Both the position numbers and the translations under genes were made by a program. This document shows, in pieces, positions 2,595 through 21,957 of a stretch of DNA of 32,000 nucleotides. Location of the stretch: contig PWLL01000051.1 in NCBI GenBank assembly GCA_003559395.1, forward strand, positions 15,019 to 47,018, given 5' to 3'. How positions within the stretch are numbered: position 1 is the first letter of the stretch; every line of letters starts with the position of its first letter. This stretch comes from Candidatus Iainarchaeum sp. (GTDB lineage: Archaea; Iainarchaeota; Iainarchaeia; Iainarchaeales; CSSED10-239). The notes beneath the pieces are model-generated. The model made no database searches and had not been told where the DNA came from. It was given only the letters and a program-made list of their open reading frames with translations.

Positions 2595-3772
2595 ATAAAA
2601 AATATCTAATAGTTTTAGTTTTGTGTTTTTTATCTTTATTTATGTTAAGTAACATAACAAACATAAATGCACAAACAACCATAGACCAATCAAAAGAACA
2701 AGTAGAAATAAATTATTTTTATTCGCCTGGTTGTTCAGCATGTGCTCAAATGGAACTTTTTCTTGATAATTTAAAAGAAAAATATGACGATGTAATTTTG
2801 AATAAATATAATCTGCAAAGAGAAAGAAAATTATTTGAAGATTTAATAAAAGAATATAAGGTTCCAGAAGATAGAGTGGGTTATATACCAACAGTATTTA
2901 TAGAAGAAGATTATTTTGTAGGATATGAAAGACAAATAACTAATTATATAGAATATATTGTTGCAACAAAATTAGGAATAGATTTTGATCCAGAAGGACC
3001 TCAAAAACCAGAAGATTTTGAAGAACTAGAAAAAACAAGAGTACAAACAAGTATCTTAGGGATTTGGGACGTAGATGTTGGATTTGAAGATAAATCAATC
3101 TTTTTTGCAACTATTATCTTAGGATTTTTAGATAGTCTGAATGTTTGTTCAATAACTGTTTTATTATTTTTAATAATATATATGTTGTCGATAGGTTCCT
3201 TTAAAAAAACACTTAAAATAGGACTTGTCTTTGTTGCAGTCATCTATATTTTTTACTTTTTAGCTGTTCTTATGCTAACTTCATTATTAAGTATTTTTGT
3301 TTTAAGATATGGATTAATGATTAGAATAATATTATCCATAATTGCAGGACTTGTAGGATTGATACTAATTAAAGACTTTTTCTTTTATGGAAAAGGAATA
3401 TCACTAGAGATACCAAAGTTTGCAAAACCAATTTTAGAAAAATATCTTAAAAAAGCAACAATTGTTTCTACAATAATGTTTGCACTATTAGCATCTTTAG
3501 TAGAACTGCCCTGTACAGCAATATTTCCTTTAATTTTTTCAACTATACTTGCAGAATCAGGAATTGTTGGAGTTTCAAGATTATTGTGGATTGCTCTATA
3601 TAACCTAGTGTATGTTATACCATTACTTGTAATTATTTTTGGAGTTTATTTTTCATGGTTAAAAATAGAACACCTAAACAAAAATATAAACAAATACAAA
3701 AAATGGATGAAATTAATTGCAGGAGCAATGCTTATATTAATTGCATTATATTTTATAATACCTATTATATAA
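2591..3772 (+). CDS. Exported thioredoxin-fold domain fused to a six-TM CcdA/DsbD-type thiol:disulfide transporter core
   Basis: SD AAGGTG. Signal peptide ends in NINAQ. Trx-like FYSPGCSACAQME (CxxC). Six TM helices with single Cys residues in TM1 (LDSLNVCSITV) and TM4 (VELPCTAIFP), the CcdA/DsbD-core arrangement. Confidence 0.75.
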   Translation: MNKKYLIVLVLCFLSLFMLSNITNINAQTTIDQSKEQVEINYFYSPGCSACAQMELFLDNLKEKYDDVILNKYNLQRERKLFEDLIKEYKVPEDRVGYIPTVFIEEDYFVGYERQITNYIEYIVATKLGIDFDPEGPQKPEDFEELEKTRVQTSILGIWDVDVGFEDKSIFFATIILGFLDSLNVCSITVLLFLIIYMLSIGSFKKTLKIGLVFVAVIYIFYFLAVLMLTSLLSIFVLRYGLMIRIILSIIAGLVGLILIKDFFFYGKGISLEIPKFAKPILEKYLKKATIVSTIMFALLASLVELPCTAIFPLIFSTILAESGIVGVSRLLWIALYNLVYVIPLLVIIFGVYFSWLKIEHLNKNINKYKKWMKLIAGAMLILIALYFIIPII

Positions 3773-5788: not shown

Positions 5789-7689
5789 TTTCTTTTTTCT
5801 TCTATTTCTTTTTTAAGATCCTCTATAAAACCTAGTAACTTTTTTTCTCCTAATATTTTATTATCTCTTGTTCTTATGTTTATTGTGTTGTTTTCTTGTT
5901 CCTTATTACCAACAACTAAAATATAGTTTATTTTTCTTAACTCTGCATTTCTTATTTTTTTGTTCATTGTTTGTTGTTTAGGATCTATATCTGTTCTTAT
6001 TCCTTTTTCCTTTAAAGAAGAACAAACTTTGTTTGCATAATCAATATGTCTATCAGCAATAGGAAGAACAATAACCTGAACAGGAGCTAACCATAAAGGA
6101 AACTTTCCAGCAAAATGTTCAATCAAAACACCCATGAATCTTTCAACACTTCCTAAGATTGCACGATGTATCATAACTGGTCTTTTTTTTTCATTATTTG
6201 GCCCTTCATAAGTTAAATCAAATTTTTCAGGCATTTGAAAATCTAATTGTATAGTTCCGCACTGCCATGTTCTTTTAATAGCATCAGTCATATGAACATC
6301 TATCTTAGGACCATAAAACGCTCCGTCTCCTTCATTTATTTTATATTCTTTTTTAGTTTTATCAAGAACATTTTTTAGTTTTTTCTCAGCTAAATCCCAA
6401 AGTTGGTTATCACCCATTGCGTTTGCAGGTTTTGTAGATAACTCCATATGGTATTTAAAACCAAAAGTAGAATATATTTCATCAACAAAATCAATAAGTT
6501 TTTCAATCTCTTCTTCAATTTGTTCTTCAGTACAAAAAACATGCGCATCATCTTGTGTCATAAATCTAACTCTAAACAAACCAGATAAAACACCAGAAAG
6601 CTCATGTCTATGAACTAATCCAAACTCTCCTGCTTTTATTGGAAGATCTTTATAAGAATATTGATGTGCTTTATAGATTAAAAGATTTCCAGGACAATTC
6701 ATTGGTTTTACAGCCTGTATACAATCGTCAATCTTTGTAAAATACATGTTGTCTTTATAATGATTCCAGTGACCAGACTGATGCCAAAGTTTTTCATGTA
6801 AAATCAGAGGAGTCATATTTATTTCATAACCCTCTCTTATCATTATTTTTCTTACAAAACTAACTAACTCATTAAAAATAATCGTACCATTATTATGGAA
6901 AAAAGGCATACCTGGCGCTTCTTCATGAAAACTAAATAAATCAAGTTCTTTGCCAATTTTTCTATGATCTCTTTTTTTTGCTTCCTCTATCTTAAAAACA
7001 AAATCTTGAAGATCTTGTTTGCTTGGAAAAGACACACCGTAAATTCTTTGTAATTGTTTGTTTTTAGAATCACCCTTCCAATAAGCACCAGAAGCACGCA
7101 ATAACTTTACTGATTTTATCTTACCTGTGTCTTTTACATGTGGCCCTCTACAAATATCCTGCAGCTCACCTAACTTGTAGATTGTAACTTGTTTTTCTTC
7201 AATATCTTCAAGAAGTTCAAGTTTGTATGGTTCCTCTTTAAACATTTCTTTTGCTTTATCATAATCAACAACTAATTTTTCAAAAACAAGTTTCTCTTTA
7301 ATAATTTTTTTAATCTCTTTTTCTATTTTTAATAAATCTTCTTCAGTAAAAGGATCTTTATCAAAATCATAATAAAACCCACTATCAATAGCAGGACCAA
7401 AACCAATCTTAACTATAGGAAACAATCTTTTTACAGCTAAAGCTAAGATGTGAGAAGAGCTATGCCAATAAACTTCTTTTCCTTTATCGTGATTAAAAGA
7501 AATGACCTCTATTGTTGAATCTTTATCAACAGTTGTTTTAATATCAGAAAGAATATTATTTATTTTTACAACAACAGCATCTTTTAGTAAACTGTTATCT
7601 ACTTCATTTATAATATCTTGTGCAGATAAGTTTTCTTTAACACTTATTTTTTTTTCTTCTTTGTTGTTTATTATTTTTATGTTTATCAT
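5785..7689 (-). CDS. thrS: Threonyl-tRNA synthetase, bacterial/eukaryotic-type architecture (TGS + HxxxH/CxxxH editing domain + class II core + anticodon-binding domain)
   Basis: HSSSHILALAV and CRGPHV editing motifs. Class II core: VHRHELSGVLSGLFRVRFMTQDDAHVF and HRAILGSVERF. 634 aa. SD-like GTGAT lies upstream of the ATG at 7689. Confidence 0.95.
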   Translation of the reverse strand: MINIKIINNKEEKKISVKENLSAQDIINEVDNSLLKDAVVVKINNILSDIKTTVDKDSTIEVISFNHDKGKEVYWHSSSHILALAVKRLFPIVKIGFGPAIDSGFYYDFDKDPFTEEDLLKIEKEIKKIIKEKLVFEKLVVDYDKAKEMFKEEPYKLELLEDIEEKQVTIYKLGELQDICRGPHVKDTGKIKSVKLLRASGAYWKGDSKNKQLQRIYGVSFPSKQDLQDFVFKIEEAKKRDHRKIGKELDLFSFHEEAPGMPFFHNNGTIIFNELVSFVRKIMIREGYEINMTPLILHEKLWHQSGHWNHYKDNMYFTKIDDCIQAVKPMNCPGNLLIYKAHQYSYKDLPIKAGEFGLVHRHELSGVLSGLFRVRFMTQDDAHVFCTEEQIEEEIEKLIDFVDEIYSTFGFKYHMELSTKPANAMGDNQLWDLAEKKLKNVLDKTKKEYKINEGDGAFYGPKIDVHMTDAIKRTWQCGTIQLDFQMPEKFDLTYEGPNNEKKRPVMIHRAILGSVERFMGVLIEHFAGKFPLWLAPVQVIVLPIADRHIDYANKVCSSLKEKGIRTDIDPKQQTMNKKIRNAELRKINYILVVGNKEQENNTINIRTRDNKILGEKKLLGFIEDLKKEIEEKRN

Positions 7690-8249: not shown

Positions 8250-8406
8250 AATATAATTAATAAACGATATGTTTAAAAACCCTTTCGTAGATAATATTTA
8301 AAGAGAAAAAAATGTATTTTTTGAGTTATTATTTAAAATAAGCGTTTTTTAGGCTTCTTTTTATATAAACGCAGAAAAATACTTAAAAAAATTGAGGTGG
8401 TTTAAT

Positions 8407-9504
8407 TTGAAATCTATAGTACAAAAAGCAATTCATACTGAAAAAACATCCTCTTCTTTAGACTATGATACAAAAGAAGAAGGAGAATTTGCGGTACCAA
8501 AAATAATGGTAATAGGAATTGGTGGTGCAGGAAACAACTCTGTAAACAGAATCTGTGCAATGGGAGCTGCAGGAGCAGAACTAGTTGCAATAAATACTGA
8601 TAGACAACACTTAGGGATAATTTCAGACGATATAACAAAACTATTAATAGGAAAATCAGTAACTAATGGTTTAGGAGCTGGAGCATATCCAGAAATAGGA
8701 GCAAAAGCAGCAGAAGTATCTAAAGCAGCTTTAGAAGAAGTTTTAGATGGAGTAGACATGTTATTTATTACTGCTGGAATGGGTGGCGGAACAGGAACAG
8801 GAGCCTCACCAGTAATTGCACAAATAGCTAAACAACAAGGAGCAATCGTTGTTGCAATTGTTACATATCCTTTTGCTTTAGAAAGAGCAAGATTAATAAA
8901 AGCAGAAGAAGGAATTGATTTATTAAAAGATATTTGTGATACTGTTGTTGTTTTAGATAATAACAGACTAGTAGAATTAGTTCCAAACCTACCAATGCAA
9001 GACGCATTTAGAGTAGCTGACGAAGTAATTGCAAGAACTGTAAGAGGAATTACAGAAACAATTACAATTCCAAGTTTAATTAATCTAGACTATGCAGATA
9101 TTAGAACAGTCATGGGTGGAAAAGGACTAAGTGTTATTGCTGTTGGAGAATCTCAATCAGTAAACAAAATAGAAGAAGTTGTAGATGACACTTTGAAAAA
9201 CGCATTACTTGATGTTGATATAACAGGAGCAACAGGATGTTTAGTACACATAACAGGTGGAACAGAACTTACTTTAGGAGAAGCAAACGCTGTTGGTGAA
9301 ATGTTAACAGAACAAGTAGATTCTAACGCAGCAGTTATTTGGGCTGCAAGAATTGATCCTACCTTTGAAAACAAAATAGAAGTAATTGCTATTTTTACAG
9401 GAGTAAAATCTCCATTTATCAAAGGAAGTAAAAAGTTTACAGGTGGAAACAACCAAACCTTTTCTAAACAATATGATGACGACTTTGGTTTAGATGTATT
9501 ATAG
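8407..9504 (+). CDS. ftsZ: Cell division protein FtsZ
   Basis: GIGGAGNNSVNR and the tubulin signature AGMGGGTGTGASPVIA. Acidic C-terminal peptide DDDFGLDVL. Start chosen as TTG 8407, 6 nt after GAGGTGG. The track's upstream in-frame TTG at 8392 overlaps that SD. Confidence 0.93.
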   Translation: MKSIVQKAIHTEKTSSSLDYDTKEEGEFAVPKIMVIGIGGAGNNSVNRICAMGAAGAELVAINTDRQHLGIISDDITKLLIGKSVTNGLGAGAYPEIGAKAAEVSKAALEEVLDGVDMLFITAGMGGGTGTGASPVIAQIAKQQGAIVVAIVTYPFALERARLIKAEEGIDLLKDICDTVVVLDNNRLVELVPNLPMQDAFRVADEVIARTVRGITETITIPSLINLDYADIRTVMGGKGLSVIAVGESQSVNKIEEVVDDTLKNALLDVDITGATGCLVHITGGTELTLGEANAVGEMLTEQVDSNAAVIWAARIDPTFENKIEVIAIFTGVKSPFIKGSKKFTGGNNQTFSKQYDDDFGLDVL

Positions 9505-9578
9505 ATAAGAAGAAGAGTTTATGAAAATAAACCACCTTCTTTTTTTCTCTTTTTTTTTAAAATTATTCGTGAAAGATA

Positions 9579-10514
9579 ATGGTATTTACAAAAGACTTTT
9601 TATGGAAAAAAGACCTAAAAGTAAAAGAACTTGTAAATAATTATGAATCTGTTGGCTTTCAATCACATGAACTTTATAGAGCATCAGAACTTGTAAAAAA
9701 GATGAAAAAAAACGGAGCCAAGATCTACTTAAGCTTTACTTCAAATCTTGTAACAACAGGACTAAGAGGTTTTTTTGCACAAACTATAAAATATGGGTTG
9801 TGTGATGTTATTTGTACAACTGTTGGGTCAATAGAAGAAGATATAATGAAAGCTATAGGAGAAAAATTTACACTCGCATCATTTTATTCAGACGATCAAG
9901 AACTTTATGAAAAAGGAGAAAATAGAGTTGGAAATATTCTTGTTAAAAACGAAAGTTATCAAAATCTTGAAAGTTACATGCAAGAGATGTTAACAGAAAT
10001 ATATAAGATTAAGAAAAAATGGTCTGTATGTGAATTGTTAAAAGAAATCGGATTGAAGATAGATGATGAAAACTCATTCTTATATCAAGCAGCAAAAAAA
10101 GGAATTCCTGTTTTTTGTCCAGCAATAACAGATGGTTCCTTTGGGTTTGATCTTTATCTTTTTAAAAAAGAAAATCCTGAGTTTGAAATTGATGTTATAA
10201 AAGATTTTGAAGAAATAATATTTACTACTACACACGACGAAAAAAAAGGAATCATTGCTTTGGGTGGAGGAGTATCAAAACATCATGTGATATTAACAAC
10301 CCTTATAAATGGGGGTGCAGACTATGTTCTGTATATGACAACCGCAAGTCCACAATCAGGAAGCCTTTCAGGAGCAACCACACAAGAAGCAAAGTCTTGG
10401 GGAAAGATAAAAGATAATGCTGATGCTGTTAATGTTTTTGGAGATGTAACTATCACCTATCCGTTGATGATGATAAAAGTTTTAGAAGATCTTACAGAAG
10501 AAAAAACGATTTAG
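9579..10514 (+). CDS. dys: Deoxyhypusine synthase
   Basis: 311 aa. SFTSNLVTTGLRG, the GGGVSKHH motif and TTASPQSGSLSGA..QEAKSWGKI match the archaeal/eukaryotic DHS family as I recall it. Confidence 0.9.
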   Translation: MVFTKDFLWKKDLKVKELVNNYESVGFQSHELYRASELVKKMKKNGAKIYLSFTSNLVTTGLRGFFAQTIKYGLCDVICTTVGSIEEDIMKAIGEKFTLASFYSDDQELYEKGENRVGNILVKNESYQNLESYMQEMLTEIYKIKKKWSVCELLKEIGLKIDDENSFLYQAAKKGIPVFCPAITDGSFGFDLYLFKKENPEFEIDVIKDFEEIIFTTTHDEKKGIIALGGGVSKHHVILTTLINGGADYVLYMTTASPQSGSLSGATTQEAKSWGKIKDNADAVNVFGDVTITYPLMMIKVLEDLTEEKTI

Positions 10515-10611
10515 TTTTTGTTTGATTTGTTGGACAAATGAAAAACAAACTACCCAAAAATATATAAAATGATTGTAACATATAATTGTTTATAACTATT
10601 TACTTTTTTGT

Positions 10612-10685
10612 GCCTCGGTAGCTTAGTGGTCTAAAGCGCTAGACTCATAATCTAGAGATCGAGAGTTCAAATCTCTCTCGAGGCA
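10612..10685 (+). tRNA. tRNA with anticodon CAT (elongator Met, or Ile2 if C34 is modified); not initiator-like
   Basis: Acceptor GCCTCGG/TCGAGGC. D arm GCTT-AGTGGTCTA-AAGC. Anticodon stem CTAGA/TCTAG with loop CT-CAT-AA. T arm GAGAG-TTCAAAT-CTCTC. Lacks the three G-C pairs of an initiator anticodon stem. Confidence 0.9.
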
Positions 10686-10731
10686 TTCTATTTTTAAACA
10701 TAATCAATAGTAAATATATTAGGTGAAATAT

Positions 10732-10941
10732 ATGAAATTATCTGCAATAATAACAAAAGAAGATAAGATTTATGTTGCATATTGTCTAGAACTTAATGTC
10801 GTTAGTCAAGGTACTAATGAAAAAAGAGCACTTGCAAATCTTAAAGAAGCAGTGGAACTATTTTTAGAAGATGAAGATGTAAAAAAAGTAATTAAAAATA
10901 TATTTCCTGCAAAAATGTATTCATTAGAAATTCCTGCATAG
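10732..10941 (+). CDS. hicB: HicB-like antitoxin (short UPF0150-type)
   Basis: MKLSAIITKEDKIYVAYCLELNVVSQGTNEKRALANLKEAVELFLED is typical of short HicB proteins. AGGTGA lies 5 nt before ATG 10732; the track's GTG at 10723 sits inside that SD. Directly precedes hicA. Confidence 0.7.
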   Translation: MKLSAIITKEDKIYVAYCLELNVVSQGTNEKRALANLKEAVELFLEDEDVKKVIKNIFPAKMYSLEIPA

Positions 10942-10952
10942 GAGATTTATAA

Positions 10953-11174
10953 ATGAGTAAATTTCCAATTCTTTCTGGTAAAGAACTAATAAAAATATTA
11001 GAAAAGAAAAACTTTAAGGTTGTTGGAAAAAAAGGAAGTCATGTTAGATTAAAAAAAATAACTAAAGATAGAATATATATTACTGTAGTACCATTACATC
11101 AAAGAATATCTCCTGGTACTTTATTAGCTATTTTAAAGCAAACAAACTTAAGTAAAGATGAGTTATTTGATTAA
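10953..11174 (+). CDS. hicA: HicA-family mRNA interferase toxin
   Basis: LSGKELIKILEKKNFKVVGKKGSHVRLKK matches the HicA/YcfA signature (G.E..K.L...GF......GSH). GGAG SD. 73 aa. Confidence 0.8.
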   Translation: MSKFPILSGKELIKILEKKNFKVVGKKGSHVRLKKITKDRIYITVVPLHQRISPGTLLAILKQTNLSKDELFD

Positions 11175-11175
11175 T

Positions 11176-11937
11176 ATGGATAAAGAAGTTGAAACATTCT
11201 ATAATAAGATTGCAGATAGTTACTCTGATCATGATGATAGGGTGTGTGATAAGATTATAGAACATTTTATGTTAAAAAACATTCCTAAAAAAAAACTAAA
11301 CATATTAGATGCTGGTGCAGGAATTGGCAGATTTTCAAAACCATTATTAAAACTAGGTCATAAAGTTGTTTTGTCAGATATATCTTTAAAAATGCTAAAT
11401 AAAGCAAAAAATAATCTTAAAGAATATTCAAATGCAGAGTTTATTAAAAATTCAGTTGTTGATATGTCTCAATTTAAAGATAATTCTTTTGATGTTGTAA
11501 TTATGATGAATGCAATCTTAGATTACTGTTAAGATTATAAAAAAGCTATGAAAGAAACATACAAAGTTCTTAAAAAAAACGGTATATTTATAGGTACTGT
11601 AAATAATAGGTTAATTTATTGTAAAAATCATGAACTAATAGAAGAAAATTATGAACTTTTCTTAAAAAATATGAAGACAGGAAATAGATATATTGTATGG
11701 AAAGGTCAAAAGAAAGGACACACAAGCCATGAGTTTACTTTAGAAGAATTAAAAAAATCTCTTTTAAGTAAAAAATTCAAAATTAAAAAGATTTTAGGAA
11801 TATATAATCTTTTAGGAAAATATGAAATGAACGATCTAAAAGATAAACAAAAATTTATTCAATTACAAATAAAGTTTGCAGAAAAAAAAGAATATTTAAA
11901 CAATTCTCAAGATTTCTTTTTTATTGCTCAAAAATAA
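11176..11937 (+). pseudogene. Class I SAM-dependent methyltransferase interrupted by one in-frame TAA (11530-11532)
   Basis: Track ORFs 11158-11532 and 11548-11937 are in the same frame. Motif I is ILDAGAGIGRF. The stop falls inside the conserved block FDVVIMMNAILDYC*DYKKAMKETYKVLKKNGIF. Confidence 0.7.
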
Positions 11938-11972
11938 TAATTTTATAAAGTATTTATTTATTATGGCATATC

Positions 11973-12022
11973 CATAATATGGAGATCGAGAGTTCAAATC
12001 TCTCTCGATGCATTCTATTTTT
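11973..12022 (+). repeat. Direct repeat: copy of the tRNA-CAT 3' half plus ~10 nt of downstream flank
   Basis: CATAATatgGAGATCGAGAGTTCAAATCTCTCTCGAtGCATTCTATTTTT versus 10646-10695 CATAATctaGAGATCGAGAGTTCAAATCTCTCTCGAgGCATTCTATTTTT. Four mismatches. Confidence 0.9.
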
Positions 12023-12117
12023 TATAAATAAATAGTTTATTAATACAAACGTATTAAATAATCTAATAAAGTGTTATTTTATAAATTTATTGAGACTAAT
12101 ATATATTTGTGATAAAT

Positions 12118-12312
12118 ATGAATGTAAAAGAATCTTTAATAAAAGAAATTAATAAAGCTCCTGAGCCAATACTTGAAGAAATATTAAATTATACCATGTA
12201 TCTAAAAATTAAAGTTAATCTACTTAATACAAATAAACCAAACACTTACGAATCTGCTTTTGCAAAAGATTGGCTTACAAAAGAGGAAGATGAAGCATGG
12301 AAAAATTTATAG
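12118..12312 (+). CDS. Putative antitoxin (DUF2281-like) paired with the downstream MazF/PemK toxin
   Basis: Small acidic protein. KESLIKEINKAPEPILEEILNYTMYLK resembles DUF2281 antitoxins. It overlaps the toxin gene by 16 nt. ATG 12118 is preferred over the track's GTG 12109. Confidence 0.55.
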   Translation: MNVKESLIKEINKAPEPILEEILNYTMYLKIKVNLLNTNKPNTYESAFAKDWLTKEEDEAWKNL

Positions 12313-12599
12313 AAGGAGACATTGTTGTTGTTCCTTTTCCTTTTTCTGATTTAAAAAACTTTAAAAAAAGACCTGCTTTAGTTCTTTCAACCTTAGATGG
12401 AGAAGATGTAATTATACTTCAAATAACTTCTCAAAACAGATTAGATAAATATACAATAACTATTAAAAAAGAAGATTTTGAAGAAGGCAAATTAGATATA
12501 GATAGTTTTGTTAGATGTGATAGAATATATACAATTGATAAAAATGTTGTAATATATAAGATAGGCACATTAAAAAATATAAAATTTAATATTATTTAA
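12297..12599 (+). CDS. PemK/MazF-family type II toxin (endoribonuclease)
   Basis: GDIVVVPFPFSDLKNFKKRPALVLS...DVIILQITSQ is the canonical MazF/PemK N-terminal signature. 100 aa. Confidence 0.8.
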   Translation: MEKFIEGDIVVVPFPFSDLKNFKKRPALVLSTLDGEDVIILQITSQNRLDKYTITIKKEDFEEGKLDIDSFVRCDRIYTIDKNVVIYKIGTLKNIKFNII

Positions 12600-12647
12600 A
12601 ATAAAGTATTAGACATATTAAAATAAAAATTTATTTAGAAATTATTT

Positions 12648-12678
12648 GTTCAAATCTCTCTCGAGGCATTTTATTTTT
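12648..12678 (+). repeat. Direct repeat: copy of the last ~19 nt of tRNA-CAT plus downstream flank
   Basis: GTTCAAATCTCTCTCGAGGCATTtTATTTTT versus tRNA locus GTTCAAATCTCTCTCGAGGCATTcTATTTTT. One mismatch in 31 nt. Confidence 0.9.
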
Positions 12679-12706
12679 AGTAATATTTTTATGATATTAT
12701 TTAAAA

Positions 12707-13312
12707 TCAGATAAGATGTTTACTACAATTAAATATATGCATTTTATGATTTTTATCTTTATCAATTTCAAATATACTTATACTTGCATTATCTAATCTA
12801 GGCTCAGGAATTATAATTGTAGAATCTTTATAATTTGTTTTTTCTTTTATTACAAAATGAATAACTTGATTTATACCATAATGCCCAATTATTAAAATTG
12901 TGTCTGAAGATTTATGTTTTTTAATTATTTTTTTAATAAACTTATTTGCTCTATTATAAAGTTCTTTTAGTGGTTCTCCATTAACCATATCTTCTTTAAT
13001 TATTGATGTGCTTTCTAAAAGATTAAGTTGTTTTTTTGTTTTTCTTTGCCAAATCCCTAAATTTCTTTCTCTAAGTTCTTTAGTAATCTCTATAGGTGTG
13101 TTTATGTGATATTTTGAAATTTCCCTTGTGGTATCTGATGCTCTTTTAAGATCACTAGAATAAATATAATCTATTTTTTCATATTTTAATCTTTCTGAAA
13201 GTTTTATTGCTTGATTAATTCCTAATTCTGAAAGATTTCCTTGTAATTGCCCTTGCATAATTTTTTTCTTGTTTTCTATGGTTTGTCCATGTCTAGTAAT
13301 TATTATTTTCAT
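12707..13312 (-). CDS. Histidine phosphatase family protein (phosphoglycerate mutase-like)
   Basis: N-terminal IIITRHGQT (RHG catalytic motif), SSDLKRASDT, and a second His in LIIGHYGIN. Confidence 0.8.
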   Translation of the reverse strand: MKIIITRHGQTIENKKKIMQGQLQGNLSELGINQAIKLSERLKYEKIDYIYSSDLKRASDTTREISKYHINTPIEITKELRERNLGIWQRKTKKQLNLLESTSIIKEDMVNGEPLKELYNRANKFIKKIIKKHKSSDTILIIGHYGINQVIHFVIKEKTNYKDSTIIIPEPRLDNASISIFEIDKDKNHKMHIFNCSKHLI

Positions 13313-13568
13313 AAATAACTTAAGAATAAACTATAATAAATAATTAATGTTTTTAATAACATTTTTTCATTAATAATAATTTTTAAATAAGCTATATATT
13401 ATCTATTTAATATTTATGAAAAAGAAGAAAACAAATAAGAAAAAAACAAAGAAATAATTTCCTTTTTCTCTTTTATTTTCTGTTTATAAACTATTTGTTA
13501 CTATATATTATATATTAATATACAAATATGGTATATCAAAAACAACTTACAAAAAGGAAAAGATAAAT

Positions 13569-14852
13569 ATGACTAATTCTAATAATAGCTTTACTAGCTT
13601 AATTAATGATGAAAAAGTTTTGTCTGCTATAAGAGACATAGGAATAGACACACCAACAGAAATACAAATAAAAACAATGCCTTTAATAATAAAAGGCCAA
13701 AACATTATTGCACAATCAGCAACTGGCACAGGAAAAACAATTGCTTTTTTATCTGCAATCTTGTCTATGATGAACAAACAAAAAAAAGTGCAATTTTTAA
13801 TAATTGTACCAACAAGAGAACTTGCAAATCAAGTATTTTTAGAAACAAAAAAACTTCTAAAATATAAGGATTTTAGCGCTTGTGTTATATTTGGTGGTAC
13901 CTCTATAGGTCTTCAAGCAAAACAATTAAGAAATGCTGATGTGGTTATAGGAACGCCTGGAAGACTAATAGATCAATTTGAAAGAAACAATTTAAAATTA
14001 GACTCTGTTAAATATTTAGTACTTGACGAAGCCGATAGAATGTGTGATATGGGGTTTTTTAAAGAAATGGTGAAAATTATAGACAAAACACCTAAATCAA
14101 GACAAACCCTATTATATTCAGCAACAATTAATAAAGATGTTTCAGCACTTGAAAAAAAATATTTGTCCTCAGCAAAAAAGATTATCATAGAAACAAAAGT
14201 GGACCCGAATAATCTTCTACAAGAATATTATGTAGTTAAAAAAAAACAAAAATTTGCTTTGCTTTTACATCTTCTTAAAAAAAACTCTCAAAAGTCAATT
14301 GTATTTAGTAATACTAAAAGTTTTGTTGATTTAATATATGATAATCTAAAAATTAAAAACGTTGATTGTTATAAACTACATGGTGGACTAGAACAAAGAA
14401 AAAGAACAAACACTATTGCAAAATATCATACACACAAAGATGCAGTCTTGATATCAAGTGATGTTTCTTCAAGAGGAATTCATGTTGATGATCTTGATTG
14501 TATTTATAATTATGATATCCCTAGAGAAGAACTACAATACGTACACAGAATAGGAAGAACAGCAAGAGCAGGTAAAAAAGGAAAAGCAATTGCAATAATT
14601 TCAGAAAAAGAAGAAGAAAAATTTAAAAGAATGTGTAAAAGATTAAAATATGTTGTTGTAAAAAAAACAACGCCTGAAATAAATTTGGTAAGTATGGAAA
14701 AAATAGAAAAACCAGATTTGTTTAGCAATAATAAAAAAAAGTGTTCTAATCAAAGAACTTCTAAAAGGTTTTCTAATCAAAGAACTTCTGATTTTATAAA
14801 AAATAGAACCAATAGAAGATCTAGAAATAAAAATAGACCTAGAAAAAAGTAA
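13569..14852 (+). CDS. DEAD-box ATP-dependent RNA helicase with a basic C-terminal tail
   Basis: Motifs AQSATGTGKT (I), PTRELA (Ia), TPGRL, VLDEADRM (II), SAT (III), HRIGRTARAG (VI). Arg/Lys/Asn-rich C-terminus. Confidence 0.95.
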   Translation: MTNSNNSFTSLINDEKVLSAIRDIGIDTPTEIQIKTMPLIIKGQNIIAQSATGTGKTIAFLSAILSMMNKQKKVQFLIIVPTRELANQVFLETKKLLKYKDFSACVIFGGTSIGLQAKQLRNADVVIGTPGRLIDQFERNNLKLDSVKYLVLDEADRMCDMGFFKEMVKIIDKTPKSRQTLLYSATINKDVSALEKKYLSSAKKIIIETKVDPNNLLQEYYVVKKKQKFALLLHLLKKNSQKSIVFSNTKSFVDLIYDNLKIKNVDCYKLHGGLEQRKRTNTIAKYHTHKDAVLISSDVSSRGIHVDDLDCIYNYDIPREELQYVHRIGRTARAGKKGKAIAIISEKEEEKFKRMCKRLKYVVVKKTTPEINLVSMEKIEKPDLFSNNKKKCSNQRTSKRFSNQRTSDFIKNRTNRRSRNKNRPRKK

Positions 14853-14891
14853 GATTGAGTTATTTATTATCTAACAAAAAGCCTTTTTTCA

Positions 14892-18353: not shown

Positions 18354-19790
18354 ATGAGTTTTAGAAGAACACAAAAACAGCAAAAAAAAGATCAACGATA
18401 TAATGTTATAGAAGGTGTTTATTGGGCTATAATGTTTTATCTTCTAACCTTGTTTTTAGTACCTTATGCTTTATATTTTGGTGCAACTCCATTTCAGATT
18501 GGTTTGTTAGAGTCTTTGCCTTTGTTTGTTGGTTCTTTATTTGGTTTATTATCATACAGTGTTTTGAAACATTTTAGATCTAAAAAACAGTTGTGTGTTA
18601 TTTTTTCTATATATCAAGTAATTCTTTGTGTTTTATTAGGTGTTTTTTATTTTTTTATAAGTCAAAATAAAGTTTTTGTAATTATTTTTCTATTTATTTT
18701 ATTTAATGTTTTTGATGTGATTACAAGAATAATTCATACAGACTGGATTGGAAAATTATTTGTTCTAAAAAGAATTGGTGCATATACTGCACAAAAACAA
18801 ATACTTTTACAAATGATTTCTATTATTCCAATTTTGTTATCAGGATATTTGTTAGATACGTTATTTGTTGGACAAAATGTGTTGATTGGATTTACGATCT
18901 TATTTATAATAGCTGCTTTATCTAGATTAATAGGTGCTCATTATCTTAACAAGATAAATGCTACAGAAACAAGAGAAGATATTAAAGAAGAAATAAAAGA
19001 ACATAAAATTTCATTAATAAAAGTTATTAAAAAAGATGTTTTACAAAATAAAGAATATAAGTTTTTTTTAATAGTTATTTTAATACTTTATTTTAGTATC
19101 TTTATGGCTTCACCATATTTTAAATATTATTTTTTAGAGTCTTTGGGTTTAAGTTATTTTTCTTTTGTTTTTTTACATGTTATTACTGTTGTTAGTACTG
19201 TTTTAAGTTTAAGATATTGGGGACAAATAAACGACAAATACGGTGCATCTAAAATATTAAAAGCAACAACTCTTTTCTTTCCATTATATACTTTGTTATT
19301 AATATTTTTTCACAGAAGTTTTTTACTTTTATGCTTGTTAAATTTTTTTGATGGTATGTTGGTTGGTGGCTTTGTAATTGCAATTAGAACCTATTTTTAT
19401 CAAAATACAAGAAAAGATTTAATCACTCATTTTTCTTTGTTTTCATTTGTTCAGGCATTAGGTGTTATTTTGGGTACTTTATTTGGGGGATATATTATTG
19501 TTAAAGCAAGTAATTTTTTTCTTCAAGAAATACATGCTCTTTGGTTTGTTTTTGCAATAGCTACTTTATTTAGAATTGTTGCTTTCTTTTATGTTCTAAA
19601 TATTAAAGAAAAATATCATAAAGATAAAAAAGCAAACTTAGCAAAAGATATTTTATTTTATGTACCAGTTAGAAAAGGGTTTAATAGATTTGGTAGATTG
19701 TTTATTAATTATGATAAATATTTGTTTTATAGAATGACAGCATTTAAAAAAAAAAATCTTACAAAAAACCAAAAAAATCAAGAAAAATAA
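18354..19790 (+). CDS. MFS-type transporter (about 12 TM helices)
   Basis: Two six-helix halves separated by a charged central loop (NATETREDIKEEIKEHK). Basic N- and C-termini. Substrate unknown. Confidence 0.65.
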   Translation: MSFRRTQKQQKKDQRYNVIEGVYWAIMFYLLTLFLVPYALYFGATPFQIGLLESLPLFVGSLFGLLSYSVLKHFRSKKQLCVIFSIYQVILCVLLGVFYFFISQNKVFVIIFLFILFNVFDVITRIIHTDWIGKLFVLKRIGAYTAQKQILLQMISIIPILLSGYLLDTLFVGQNVLIGFTILFIIAALSRLIGAHYLNKINATETREDIKEEIKEHKISLIKVIKKDVLQNKEYKFFLIVILILYFSIFMASPYFKYYFLESLGLSYFSFVFLHVITVVSTVLSLRYWGQINDKYGASKILKATTLFFPLYTLLLIFFHRSFLLLCLLNFFDGMLVGGFVIAIRTYFYQNTRKDLITHFSLFSFVQALGVILGTLFGGYIIVKASNFFLQEIHALWFVFAIATLFRIVAFFYVLNIKEKYHKDKKANLAKDILFYVPVRKGFNRFGRLFINYDKYLFYRMTAFKKKNLTKNQKNQEK

Positions 19791-19821
19791 TCAAAAACCA
19801 TGAAATTTAGGACAAAAAACA

Positions 19822-19862
19822 CACAAAAAAAGAAACCTTTATAAAGTTTTCTTATATTATAT
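19822..19862 (+). promoter_or_regulatory. Putative archaeal BRE/TATA promoter upstream of the RNA polymerase operon
   Basis: CAC-A7-GAAACCTTTATA, then TTATATTATAT 8 nt downstream. The same composite element occurs at 31800-31848. Purine-rich BRE-like stretch abutting TTTATA. Confidence 0.45.
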
Positions 19863-20068
19863 ATAGTTATATGCTCCTACTAATCTCTGCACAGATATGG
19901 TTCGTTTCTGTTATTTTTTATTTTTTATATCAAATAAGTAGTCATGAATCTGCAATTTTTTTATTTAAAAATAATATTTTAATTTGTGAGCATGATAATT
20001 AATCTAAAAATCTAAAAAAATATCTTCTTAAGATATAAAATATTTAAATAATAAATTAGGTGTTTATC

Positions 20069-20464
20069 TTGGTAAAAAAGAAATCTATAAAAGATCAAAA
20101 AAAATTAGAAGAATTAAAATCAAAGATAGAAAAACAACTTCCAGAAAAAAAAGAAATAGAAATAGAAAAACCAAAAAAGAAAACCAAAAAAGACAAATTA
20201 GAAAAATCAAAAGTTCGGAAAAAAAGAGATAGAAAAATAAAAGAGGAAATTATACACGAGTTTGTTCCAAAACACTCTTTACTAACAGAAGAAGAAAAAG
20301 AAGAACTATCTCAAAAACTAAATGTTGATAACTTAACACACATTCTAATTTCTGATCCAGGCATAAGACATCTAGAAGTAAAACCAGGATCAATAATAAA
20401 AATAAATAGAACTAATCCAAAAATTGGAGACGTTTTATATTATAGATTAGTTGTAAAAGGCTAA
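20069..20464 (+). CDS. rpoH: DNA-directed RNA polymerase subunit H (Rpo5) with a ~64-aa Lys/Glu-rich N-terminal extension
   Basis: The C-terminal 68 aa HEFVPKHSLLTEEEKEELSQKL...PGSIIKINRTNPKIGDVLYYRLVV match archaeal RpoH. No ATG lies in frame upstream of the domain. Start is TTG 20069 (6 nt after AGGTG) or the track's GTG 20060. Confidence 0.85.
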   Translation: MVKKKSIKDQKKLEELKSKIEKQLPEKKEIEIEKPKKKTKKDKLEKSKVRKKRDRKIKEEIIHEFVPKHSLLTEEEKEELSQKLNVDNLTHILISDPGIRHLEVKPGSIIKINRTNPKIGDVLYYRLVVKG

Positions 20465-20490
20465 TCATAAACAGAACAAAAGTGATTTTT

Positions 20491-21957
20491 ATGAAAAGTT
20501 TTGATAAATGGCCATTAGTTAAATCTTATTTTGAAATGGATTCTCCTATTCAACAACAAATAAACTCATTTGATCAGTTTATTTATGAAAAAATTCCAGA
20601 AATTGTAAAAGAATACGAAAAAATACAATGTAGTAATGATATTACTGTAGAACTATCAAATATAGAAATAACAAATCCACAAATAACAGAATCAGATAGA
20701 ACAACAAAACAAAAATTGTTGCCAATGGAAGCAAGATGTAGAGATTTAAGTTATTCAGGATCAATGCATCTTGATATTAAATTATATAGAAAAGGAATTT
20801 TGCAAGATGAAAAAAAAGCATATATAGGAGAAATACCAATATTAGTAAAATCAAAAAAATGTAACCTTTATAGACTTTCAGAAGAAGAACTTATAGATGT
20901 TGGAGAAGATCCAATGGATTTTGGAGGTTATTTGATTGTTAATGGTTCAGAAAAAATGCTAGTTACTCAAGAAGTATTATCTGTAGATAGAATACTAGTA
21001 CACGAAACAGATGCAAAAGTAGTTTCTTCAGAAGTATCATCTGTAAAAGGAGCCTTTAGAGGAAGAGTAAAAGTAACTGTAAATCCAGATGGTTTGTTTA
21101 CTGTTTTGTTTCCTGCATCTCCTAAAAAATTTTATTTGATTGAACTTTTAAACGCCCTAGGAATGACAAAAGAAAAAGATGTTCTAGAACAGTTTGAAGA
21201 TGAAAAAGTTATTCAAAACGAAGTTTTATTAAATCTAGAAAAAGTGCCATGTGTAAAAGAAGAAGAAGCACTAGATAAACTAGGAAGATCAGTTGCTCCA
21301 AGCCAAACAGATATCTATAGATTAAAAAGAGCAAGAGAAGTTTTAGATTCTTTCTTGTTACCACACATTGGACAGGATGAAAAAGATAGAAAGAAAAAAG
21401 CCTATTATCTTATAACAATGACAGAAAAAGCAATAGAAAAAGTATATAACTTAAGAAAAACTGCAGACAAAGACCACTATGCAAACAAAAGACTAGAACT
21501 AAGTGGAAGATTAATGGAAAATCTATTTAGATCTGCATTTAAAGCCTTTACTAAAGATTTAAAATTCCAAGTAGATAGAGCAATTTCAAGACACAGAAAA
21601 CTAAACATAAACACAATAATAAGACCAAACGCGATTACAGAAAAAATAATGTATTCAGTAAACACTGGTACCTGGGTTGGACAAGTAACAGGTGTTGCAA
21701 AATATATGACCCCCAGTAATTATTTGACAGGACTAACAGAACCAAGAAGAGTAAAATCTGCACTAGATAACTCAAGAGAACTTTATGAAGCACGAGATGT
21801 TCATGGAACACACTTTGGAAGACTATGTCCTATTGAGACACCAGATGGACCAAACTGTGGGTTAACTAGAAATCTTGCATTAATGGCAAGAATAACAACA
21901 GAAACAGATGCTGATTCTGTTATCGAGTTTTTAGAAAAAACTGATGTGAAGATATAG
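20491..21957 (+). CDS. rpoB2: DNA-directed RNA polymerase subunit B'' (N-terminal half of a split B subunit)
   Basis: Typical Rpo2 N-terminal blocks (LVKSKKCNL, GGYLIVNGSEKMLV, DKDHYANKRLELSG, HGTHFGRLCPIETPDGPNCGL). Ends where B' begins. ATG 20491 is preferred over the track's GTG 20482. Confidence 0.95.
   Translation: MKSFDKWPLVKSYFEMDSPIQQQINSFDQFIYEKIPEIVKEYEKIQCSNDITVELSNIEITNPQITESDRTTKQKLLPMEARCRDLSYSGSMHLDIKLYRKGILQDEKKAYIGEIPILVKSKKCNLYRLSEEELIDVGEDPMDFGGYLIVNGSEKMLVTQEVLSVDRILVHETDAKVVSSEVSSVKGAFRGRVKVTVNPDGLFTVLFPASPKKFYLIELLNALGMTKEKDVLEQFEDEKVIQNEVLLNLEKVPCVKEEEALDKLGRSVAPSQTDIYRLKRAREVLDSFLLPHIGQDEKDRKKKAYYLITMTEKAIEKVYNLRKTADKDHYANKRLELSGRLMENLFRSAFKAFTKDLKFQVDRAISRHRKLNINTIIRPNAITEKIMYSVNTGTWVGQVTGVAKYMTPSNYLTGLTEPRRVKSALDNSRELYEARDVHGTHFGRLCPIETPDGPNCGLTRNLALMARITTETDADSVIEFLEKTDVKI

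Follow-up and report, generated by a model that had tools for sequence, protein, structure and literature searches.

What places two small toxin–antitoxin (TA) modules in tandem behind a tRNA gene of an archaeal chromosome, and leaves each of them closed by a copy of the tRNA's own 3′ end? The question is raised by a stretch of 32,000 nt from Candidatus Iainarchaeum sp. (GenBank assembly GCA_003559395.1, contig PWLL01000051.1, positions 15,019 to 47,018), here called the window, to which all coordinates without a contig name refer. The window is core chromosome, with genes for ThrRS, FtsZ, deoxyhypusine synthase, a DEAD-box helicase, a Na+/H+ exchanger, RNA polymerase subunits and ribosomal proteins, and its host is a tiny symbiotic archaeon of the DPANN group, Iainarchaeota/Diapherotrites-like; judged by deoxyhypusine synthase, the nearest reference genomes among 80 GTDB representatives are DPANN metagenome-assembled genomes (MAGs) of the Iainarchaeota/Diapherotrites type, at no more than 73% identity. 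A first-pass annotation had read the repeats as attachment-site (att) scars of serial integration and had offered two explanations, an integron-style array that uses a tRNA-derived hairpin as its recombination site and, as the conservative alternative, the decay of larger elements. Our analysis favors the latter: the locus is probably an integration hot spot holding two stacked, strongly reduced, integrase-less remnants of tRNA-integrating elements (cassettes A and B), and their array is a familiar type of genomic scar, not a new gene-capture system. Its parts, from left to right, are:

10612..10685, + strand: intact tRNA gene, anticodon CAT; integration target, serving as regenerated attL
10646..10695, + strand: att identity block, from the anticodon loop to +10 past the tRNA end; reference copy of repeat family D1
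10696..11972, + strand: cassette A, the younger insertion, with a hicB-like open reading frame (ORF), hicA and a methyltransferase pseudogene
11973..12022, + strand: copy A, the displaced former tRNA 3′ part; attR of cassette A and formerly the attL end of cassette B
12023..12647, + strand: cassette B, the older insertion, with a DUF2281-like antitoxin and a MazF/PemK toxin
12648..12678, + strand: copy B, the oldest displaced tRNA 3′ end with native flank, truncated at the T-loop

The intact tRNA and its two downstream 3′ copies, as first described, were recovered by ARAGORN, Rfam and a repeat search. ARAGORN called tRNA-Met(cat) at 10611–10686, and the Rfam tRNA model matched 10612–10685 with 73.9 bits; the tRNA is elongator-like as judged by its G1–C72 pair, and both Met and Ile2 identity are possible. 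The repeat search delimited one direct-repeat family, D1, with three plus-strand copies (10646–10695, 11973–12022 and 12629–12678; the repeat sequence of the tRNA-CAT locus is GTTCAAATCTCTCTCGAGGCATTYTATTT). Copy A is 94% identical to the tRNA block with 3 mismatches in 50 nt, one fewer than the four given in the first-pass annotation, whose 50-nt repeat otherwise stands, and in the third copy the match is confined to 12648–12678, with the one mismatch in 31 nt that had been reported. The 21-nt core GTTCAAATCTCTCTCGAGGCA occurs three times at ≤1 mismatch in the 32 kb, where none is expected (100 shuffles), and no core site beyond these three copies was found in the window at that threshold.

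The edges of the repeats are those of integration sites within tRNA genes, for which sublocation classes (anticodon loop, T-loop, 3′ end) are summarized in PMC8371274: the identity block starts in the anticodon loop in copy A and in the T-loop in copy B, and both copies reach +10. The ~10 nt past the tRNA end, TTCTATTTTT, are common to all three copies, which thereby retain the flank TTCTATTTTTA found natively at the empty site of a relative (L091, described below; L numbers designate the loci compared), and the sequence past copy B resembles a continuation of this native flank. Direct repeats of a whole homology block, including ~10 nt of native flank, are also the predicted outcome of an entry without any integrase, by Campbell-type homologous recombination of circles that carry a 31–50-nt tRNA 3′ segment, with later loop-out between repeats that would free circles able to enter related cells again. 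The host-like flank of all three copies, which lacks an integrase-coding continuation, and the absence of integrase stumps would both suit such a route, but we consider it quite improbable, as 31–50 nt of homology is short, copy A starts in the anticodon loop, a classical crossover sublocation of tyrosine integrases (PMC8371274), and integrase-bearing elements use the tRNA-CAT site in relatives. Furthermore, the host-like flank is no argument against an integrase, because the SSV-type attP on a related contig (L087) also has a host-like flank, TATTTTCTATTT, past the tRNA end.

The proposal of an integron-style array depended on every boundary keeping the T-arm hairpin. Folding computations place this hairpin in the tRNA block and in copy A; copy B begins at G-TTCAAAT, is missing the T-stem 5′ strand GAGAG and shows no T-arm hairpin (minimum free energy −1.2 kcal/mol, z about 0). 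The idea therefore fails on its own premise at the last boundary, and neither the platform and integrase of an integron nor attI or attC sites are present. What the locus has in common with integron TA cassette arrays (PMC13108822) is small units, several TA pairs, a repeated site and a fixed platform, and TA pairs may plausibly guard the array in both; the window differs in having no IntI-type integrase, attI or attC, only two units with their own promoters, and boundaries that are unequal tRNA 3′ fragments, the last of them hairpin-less.

A second palindrome lies at the left edge of copy A:

11959..11979, + strand: perfect 8-bp dyad TATTATGG-CATAT-CCATAATA, spanning the left edge of copy A, with the anticodon region as its right arm

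The 68 nt at 11955–12022, which include the T-arm, fold at −11.5 kcal/mol (z −4.2; 0 of 200 shuffles as good), and the dyad may be a candidate integrase core-type site or a chance match in AT-rich DNA. Two other candidates were rejected. Descent of copy A from a whole, diverged tRNA gene finds nothing tRNA-like upstream of the anticodon region, Rfam matching the 3′ part only, and the sequence ATAAAGTATT, common upstream of both copies, is in cassette B the in-frame tail of MazF.

To place the cassettes relative to an unoccupied locus, we used the two conserved neighbors of the tRNA:

9579..10514, + strand: deoxyhypusine synthase gene (dys), conserved left neighbor of the tRNA (Pfam DS, 5e-102)
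13569..14852, + strand: DEAD-box helicase gene, conserved right neighbor at the empty site (Pfam DEAD/Helicase_C)

None of the 80 GTDB representative loci (best dys 73%) has tRNA-CAT after dys, and they provide no empty-site test; the tRNA is likewise missing after dys in L097–L103 (dys 77–78% identical) and in L104 and L105 (85–86%). Close relatives were found by a metagenome scan with the att core and with dys homologues at 85–89% identity, and dys–tRNA synteny is kept in L090 (89% amino acid identity) and L091 (85.5%). This comparison of related loci, proposed in the first-pass annotation as a check, yielded both an empty site and a different cassette. In L091, L092 and L094 (dys 85.5%, FtsZ 92%), dys is followed by tRNA-CAT and then, 240 nt past the tRNA, by the helicase gene, which in L091 is 88.8% identical to that of the window. 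By blastn, L091 8701–11133 corresponds to window 8302–10692 and L091 11242–12066 to window 13440–14269, leaving between the conserved blocks 108 nt in L091 versus 2747 nt in the window; the native flank at the empty site is ttcaaTTCTATTTTTAataatg. A second state of occupancy is found in L090 (NPIE01002285.1; dys 89%, FtsZ 95%), where dys and the tRNA are followed by a GC-rich 40 nt, a 114-aa DUF6122/YdjM-like ORF and the scar attatttgTCAAAATCTCTCTCGAGGCAtaattcttattttagtaa, so forming a one-gene unit of about 0.5 kb whose tRNA and scar lie inside a 193-kb contig; the L090 scar shows no T-arm hairpin on folding.

The order of insertion is given by L106, a contig from an independent sample that begins in the tRNA 3′ part and continues with the whole of cassette B, cassette A being absent. 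Its positions 1–713 align with window 11976–12688, from copy A through the position of copy B, at 87.7% nucleotide identity over 718 nt. Since cassette B lies directly at the tRNA 3′ end there, with no A, B formerly adjoined the live tRNA and was in place before A was inserted. At the position of copy B, the collinear 38-nt stretch of L106 has drifted to A/T, with just GGCATT left. As a proof that the L106 and L090 scars are orthologous, we considered the proteins encoded to the right of each (852 and 636 aa) and rejected it, there being no similarity between them.

A trace of the second insertion is also found in the tRNA itself. As a rule, the incoming element brings the new tRNA 3′ part, and the fragment that it displaces is the former one (PMC4383910). 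Copy A retains the ancestral G42 (TATGG, versus TCTGG in all relatives), whereas the live tRNA of the window has a compensated anticodon-stem pair, T28:A42, where close relatives have C28:G42 (for example L090/L091 11053–11127). The retention of G42 in the displaced copy agrees with an origin of the live 3′ part in the incoming element, and it suggests that A42 was brought in by the integration of cassette A, with position 28 altered afterwards.

Repeated tRNA ends are also where a single-cell or metagenome assembly might go wrong, through collapsed or chimeric joins, and related contigs do break exactly at the tRNA core (L083, L087 and L106), so the repeat evidently troubles assemblers. That the array itself is such an artefact is nevertheless hardly credible. 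A second assembly (Logan SRR490128, L001), which may derive from the same library, has the same order; in the independent L106 a single contig spans the segment from copy A over cassette B as far as the scar; L090 has its tRNA and scar within a long contig; and the three copies differ by point mutations, which argues that they are not collapsed repeats.

If the repeats are att scars, which integrases act at this site? The first-pass annotation had noted that the cassettes carry no recombinase, and this can be extended: profile searches found no recombinase or integrase domain in the cassettes or anywhere in the 32-kb window, which makes A and B remnants and not active islands. The gene of an SSV-type integrase contains attP, and integration divides it into int(N) and int(C) (PMC7253208, PMC8371274). 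In the window there is neither an int(C) after attL nor an int(N) before attR with a read-through frame, the frames closing 9–17 codons past att, and a tblastn search with the SSV-type integrase of a related contig matched nothing beyond the 16 aa that the tRNA block itself encodes.

Relatives supply what the window lacks. At the end of L083 lies a partial tRNA copy that begins in the anticodon stem, reaches the 3′ end and is preceded by non-tRNA DNA; L087, from the same assembly, begins in the tRNA core. Joined at that core, the two give an open 337-aa frame through att (...GQTHNLEIESSNLSRG...), whose C-terminal part matches Pfam PF16795, "Archaeal phage integrase" (8e-29), and which matches the SSV1 integrase structures 3vcf/4dks/3uxu at about 1e-11; this join of two contigs is inferred, with the open frame, L086 and L108 in its support. 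On the single contig L086, an intact tRNA-CAT is followed by an in-frame broken int(C) at 57% identity (ORFs of 85 and 95 aa). These loci indicate that SSV-type, "suicidal" integrases target tRNA-CAT in Iainarchaeota-like DPANN archaea. Together with the empty site, the different cassette in L090 and cassette B alone in L106, integrases that run through the tRNA 3′ part bear out the original view that the repeats are att scars of serial integration.

The TA operon of cassette B recurs in L108 and L109, where its neighbor is an int(N)+att stump belonging to another tRNA; the L108 operon is part of an array with three IntN+att repeats and has a PF16795 integrase 2 kb away. Window 12055–12628, the operon with its promoter, is 80% nucleotide identical to both, and only this segment is common, spacers and att sites being different, so that the unit exchanged was the operon and not an att-bounded cassette.

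Several side observations concern these arrays. The IntN+att repeats of L108 (1–8196) lie at 413–688, 3308–3583 and 6967–7086, and the cargo modules of the L108 and L109 (1–1615) array comprise M78 peptidase–DUF4411, CDPS, Fic and DUF2281–MazF. The mid-array SSV-type integrase of L108 is frameshifted at att and resembles the hybrid integrases modeled in PMC7253208, and in L109 a full att is separated from a 19-nt att copy by a "unit" of 42 nt. A feature not present in the window, immediately 3′ of the att cores of two different tRNAs, is a GC-rich unit of ~35 nt (L090 11130–11165; L109 142–178 and 1174–1210; L108 about 6214 and 7786) with a hairpin whose stem covaries (AACCG/CGGTT, AGCTG/CAGCT, AACTG/CAGTT) around the loop GTTTYGSY. 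This unit might be a site on the element side or a terminator, or else what is left of the int(C) start.

The cargo was characterized gene by gene. Cassette A contains:

10732..10941, + strand: hicB-like ORF of 69 aa, labeled by its position upstream of hicA
10953..11174, + strand: hicA (Pfam HicA, 2.7e-17)
11176..11937, + strand: SAM-methyltransferase pseudogene, its N-terminal half matching Pfam at 6e-15, both halves in one frame
11530..11532, + strand: in-frame stop in the methyltransferase, GAA to TAA

and cassette B contains:

12118..12312, + strand: DUF2281-like antitoxin ORF, a weak Pfam DUF2281 match (1.8e-3) below the curated cut-off
12297..12599, originally to 12626, + strand: MazF/PemK toxin gene (PemK_toxin, 3.4e-14)
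12597..12599, + strand: premature stop in MazF, AAA to TAA; homologues have 109–113 aa

In cassette A, the hicA and broken-methyltransferase labels of the first-pass annotation hold, and the hicB label is unconfirmed: the ORF has no significant profile match, only a weak one to DUF7387 (4e-4), and nothing significant in NCBIfam or PDB. In cassette B, the MazF/PemK assignment is supported and that of DUF2281 remains weak; antitoxin and toxin reading frames share 16 nt, and they recur as a conserved pair in L106–L109.

Both units are damaged. Over its full length the methyltransferase can be aligned with intact homologues of 254 aa (70–72% amino acid, 78% nucleotide identity), which have Glu or Gly at the position of the stop, the matching codon of L115 being GAA. 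The MazF stop removes the last 9 residues, with 8 more in-frame codons following to the original stop at 12624–12626, and MazF is intact in L106. The neighbors of the intact methyltransferase homologues are of the housekeeping kind (phosphomannomutase, MTase, HD protein), with no hicAB, att or integrase among them, and no DNA homologue of cassette A was found beside a tRNA or integrase in the loci compared, which were searched through the methyltransferase and not with HicA as query. At 11167–11176, both the final hicA codons (TTTGATTAA) and the start codon of the methyltransferase overlap TTGATTAAT-ATG, a stretch of 9 nt; as this stretch is also found in front of the intact chromosomal homologue of the methyltransferase in L115, the TA pair and the methyltransferase are joined seamlessly.

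What history would join these observations? Integrated islands have ends marked by a regenerated target and a displaced fragment (PMC4383910), and there are archaeal precedents for the loss of the integrase after integration and for tandem integration (PMC8371274). A DUF2281–MazF element would first have integrated into the 3′ part of tRNA-CAT by tyrosine-integrase recombination, supplying a new tRNA 3′ end and pushing the old one downstream as copy B. A second element, carrying the hicB-like/hicA pair and the methyltransferase, would then have entered the regenerated tRNA through an identity block from the anticodon loop to +10, and the then-current 3′ end would have been displaced as copy A. 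The integrases were probably of the SSV type that uses this tRNA in relatives, with a gene split and inactivated on integration; their stumps and the remainder of both elements may then have been deleted in a streamlined genome. The TA operons would have survived longest because their loss is counter-selected (addiction), a stabilizing role that they presumably had in both elements, and they now appear to be decaying in turn.

Decay of larger elements, the conservative alternative of the first-pass annotation, is better supported than its integron-like counterpart by the nonsense mutations in both cassettes, the truncation of copy B, the decayed scar in L106 and the sharing of the operon alone with L108 and L109. 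Several observations weigh against this history all the same. The probable family of the integrase that made A and B is taken from relatives, and tblastn found no IntC trace after the tRNA or copy A and no IntN trace before copy A or B; random decay of kilobase-sized elements would more often leave integrase pseudogenes, as in L086. The cargo is close at four junctions, within ~21–36 nt of the att block or within ~60 nt of conserved operon sequence. There is a suspicious regularity in three distinct tiny units (A, B and the ~0.5-kb unit of L090) at one tRNA. Finally, the left edge of copy B and the 8 nt upstream of it, ATTATTTG, are identical in the L090 scar, where the cargo is different, which simple independent decay does not predict. 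These oddities could reflect strong deletion pressure halted only by features under selection, namely the tRNA and the TA operons, or integrase-mediated deletions anchored at the core, or a shared ancestry of the scars.

The same oddities speak for a rival reading, in which A and B would be still-mobile, integrase-less mini-cassettes, moved in trans by an integrase encoded elsewhere, such as that of an incoming SSV-type element recombining the att copies on either side, with the tRNA locus as a cassette array that resembles an integron or the accretion of cis-mobilizable elements. The units are compact, their cargo sits tight against the att blocks without integrase stumps, three different ones occupy a single tRNA in two related genomes, and the shared edge of copy B and the L090 scar holds despite the change of cargo; moreover, the att-copy arrays of L109 and L108 have very small intervening units, down to 42 nt, copy A keeps its T-arm and dyad, and the lineage has integrases that use this att. 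Against such mobility stands first the structure of copy B, without anticodon arm, T-stem 5′ strand or hairpin, when characterized archaeal integrases require the loop and proximal stem (PMC8371274). The material shared with L108 and L109 is again the operon and its promoter, with other flanks and other att sites, both units bear nonsense mutations, the scar has decayed in L106, and the window encodes no integrase. Among the assembled contigs, neither circular nor polymorphic forms were seen. A search of 2.9 million viral contigs gave 0 matches to the att core and no relatives of the SSV-type integrase or of MazF. We regard mobilization in trans as unlikely, and keep it in consideration on account of the missing integrase stumps, the three tiny units and the shared scar edge. 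The wider proposal that DPANN tRNA 3′ ends may gather integrase-less mini-cassettes of 0.5–1.3 kb (TA or single modules), moved in trans by incoming integrases or by repeat recombination in a tRNA-anchored analogue of a cassette array, is a shade more doubtful still; if mini-units are mobile in this way, they would constitute a new gene-exchange route for minimal-genome organisms.

Read as two stacked remnants, the locus can be set beside known systems. With tRNA-gene islands as defined by the Islander principle (PMC4383910) it shares an intact tRNA, 3′ copies in the same orientation, blocks from the loop to past the 3′ end, foreign cargo and an empty site, and with tandem arrays of such islands (Williams 2002, as cited in PMC8371274) the position of the newest unit beside the live tRNA; it differs in units of only 0.6–1.3 kb, in the lack of an integrase and in its DPANN host. 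Units of this kind would be missed systematically, because Islander-type searches reject candidates below 2 kb or without an integrase. The closest defined category is that of the bacterial cis-mobilizable elements (CIMEs) stacked by accretion (PMC5704250). As in CIMEs and in tRNA accretion of Firmicutes (PMC5704250, PMC6323972), integration and transfer genes are lost, attL and attR are kept and units are stacked in tandem at a tRNA 3′ end, cassette A lying between the full tRNA block and copy A, and cassette B between copy A and the truncated copy B. CIMEs differ in having been moved experimentally by a helper integrative and conjugative element, whereas the units of the window are known from sequence alone, and the window further differs in the truncation of its outermost att (copy B) and in its archaeal setting with no conjugation context. 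With SSV-type (type I) elements the link is through relatives, whose tRNA-CAT att lies inside a PF16795/SSV1-like integrase frame (L083+L087, L086), the difference being that both int(N) and int(C) are missing from the window.

Repeated integration into one tRNA gene, with decay afterwards, is an ordinary process, seen here in an unusually reduced form. At this locus a DPANN chromosome is seen to have a variable hot spot of integration, with an empty site, two states of occupancy and integrase-bearing elements in relatives. It bears on the host range of SSV-type integrases, which PMC7253208 and PMC8371274 describe mainly from hyperthermophiles, with no DPANN host, and hence no Iainarchaeota-like group, among those they list. 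TA operons as the last surviving cargo of such elements fit the idea of addiction, and scars of this kind will escape island finders whose criteria include an integrase and a length above 2 kb.

Not all of the DNA that separates the window from the empty site lies within the two cassettes. One further gene lies inside the extra DNA:

12707..13312, − strand: histidine-phosphatase gene (Pfam His_Phos_1, 2e-37)

No tRNA copy bounds this gene, which is absent between tRNA and helicase in L091 and after the scar in L106, and an exact look-up of its protein found no record. Together with 13313–13439, it was either inserted by another route or lost in relatives. Nearby, the 40 nt at 13384–13423 match, at 87.5% identity, the promoter and initial codons of the 852-aa ORF that follows the scar in L106; the window keeps a mere 13-codon stub of that ORF (ATGAAAAAGAAG...), apparently what a deletion left of a large gene.

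DNA to the right of the L090 scar is also variable, since homology to the window resumes only at 14884. At L090 11869–17427, ~5.8 kb of unrelated genes, encoding coiled-coil repeat proteins (636 and 259 aa), TspO and a thioredoxin-like protein (529 aa), replace the helicase region of the window. The whole interval from tRNA-CAT to tRNA-Glu appears to be a variable region. tRNA-Glu(ctc) lies 0.9–1.5 kb downstream of tRNA-CAT in L089/L088 and L085, more distant contigs with an identical tRNA-CAT 3′ end, 7.6 kb downstream in the window and 9 kb in L090. Beyond tRNA-Glu, the genes of L089 are syntenic with window 18354–21957.

Scars of tRNA 3′ ends are not ubiquitous, as only a few of the 48 distinct tRNAs in the loci compared show 3′-end copies: the tRNA-CAT locus (the window, L084/L090), a tRNA-Gln (L060) and a paralog-rich cluster (L082). 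In L060 (3409–3563), from a Woesearchaeota MAG, a copy of the last 19 nt of tRNA-Gln(ctg), with 2 mismatches, lies ~63 nt past the gene and may be another mini-scar. The cluster on the metagenome contig L082 (586–1716) consists of twelve tightly packed tRNA-Leu and tRNA-Ser genes, one of which has the 21-nt T-arm/acceptor core of the window's tRNA-CAT, by convergence or ancestry and unrelated to the array.

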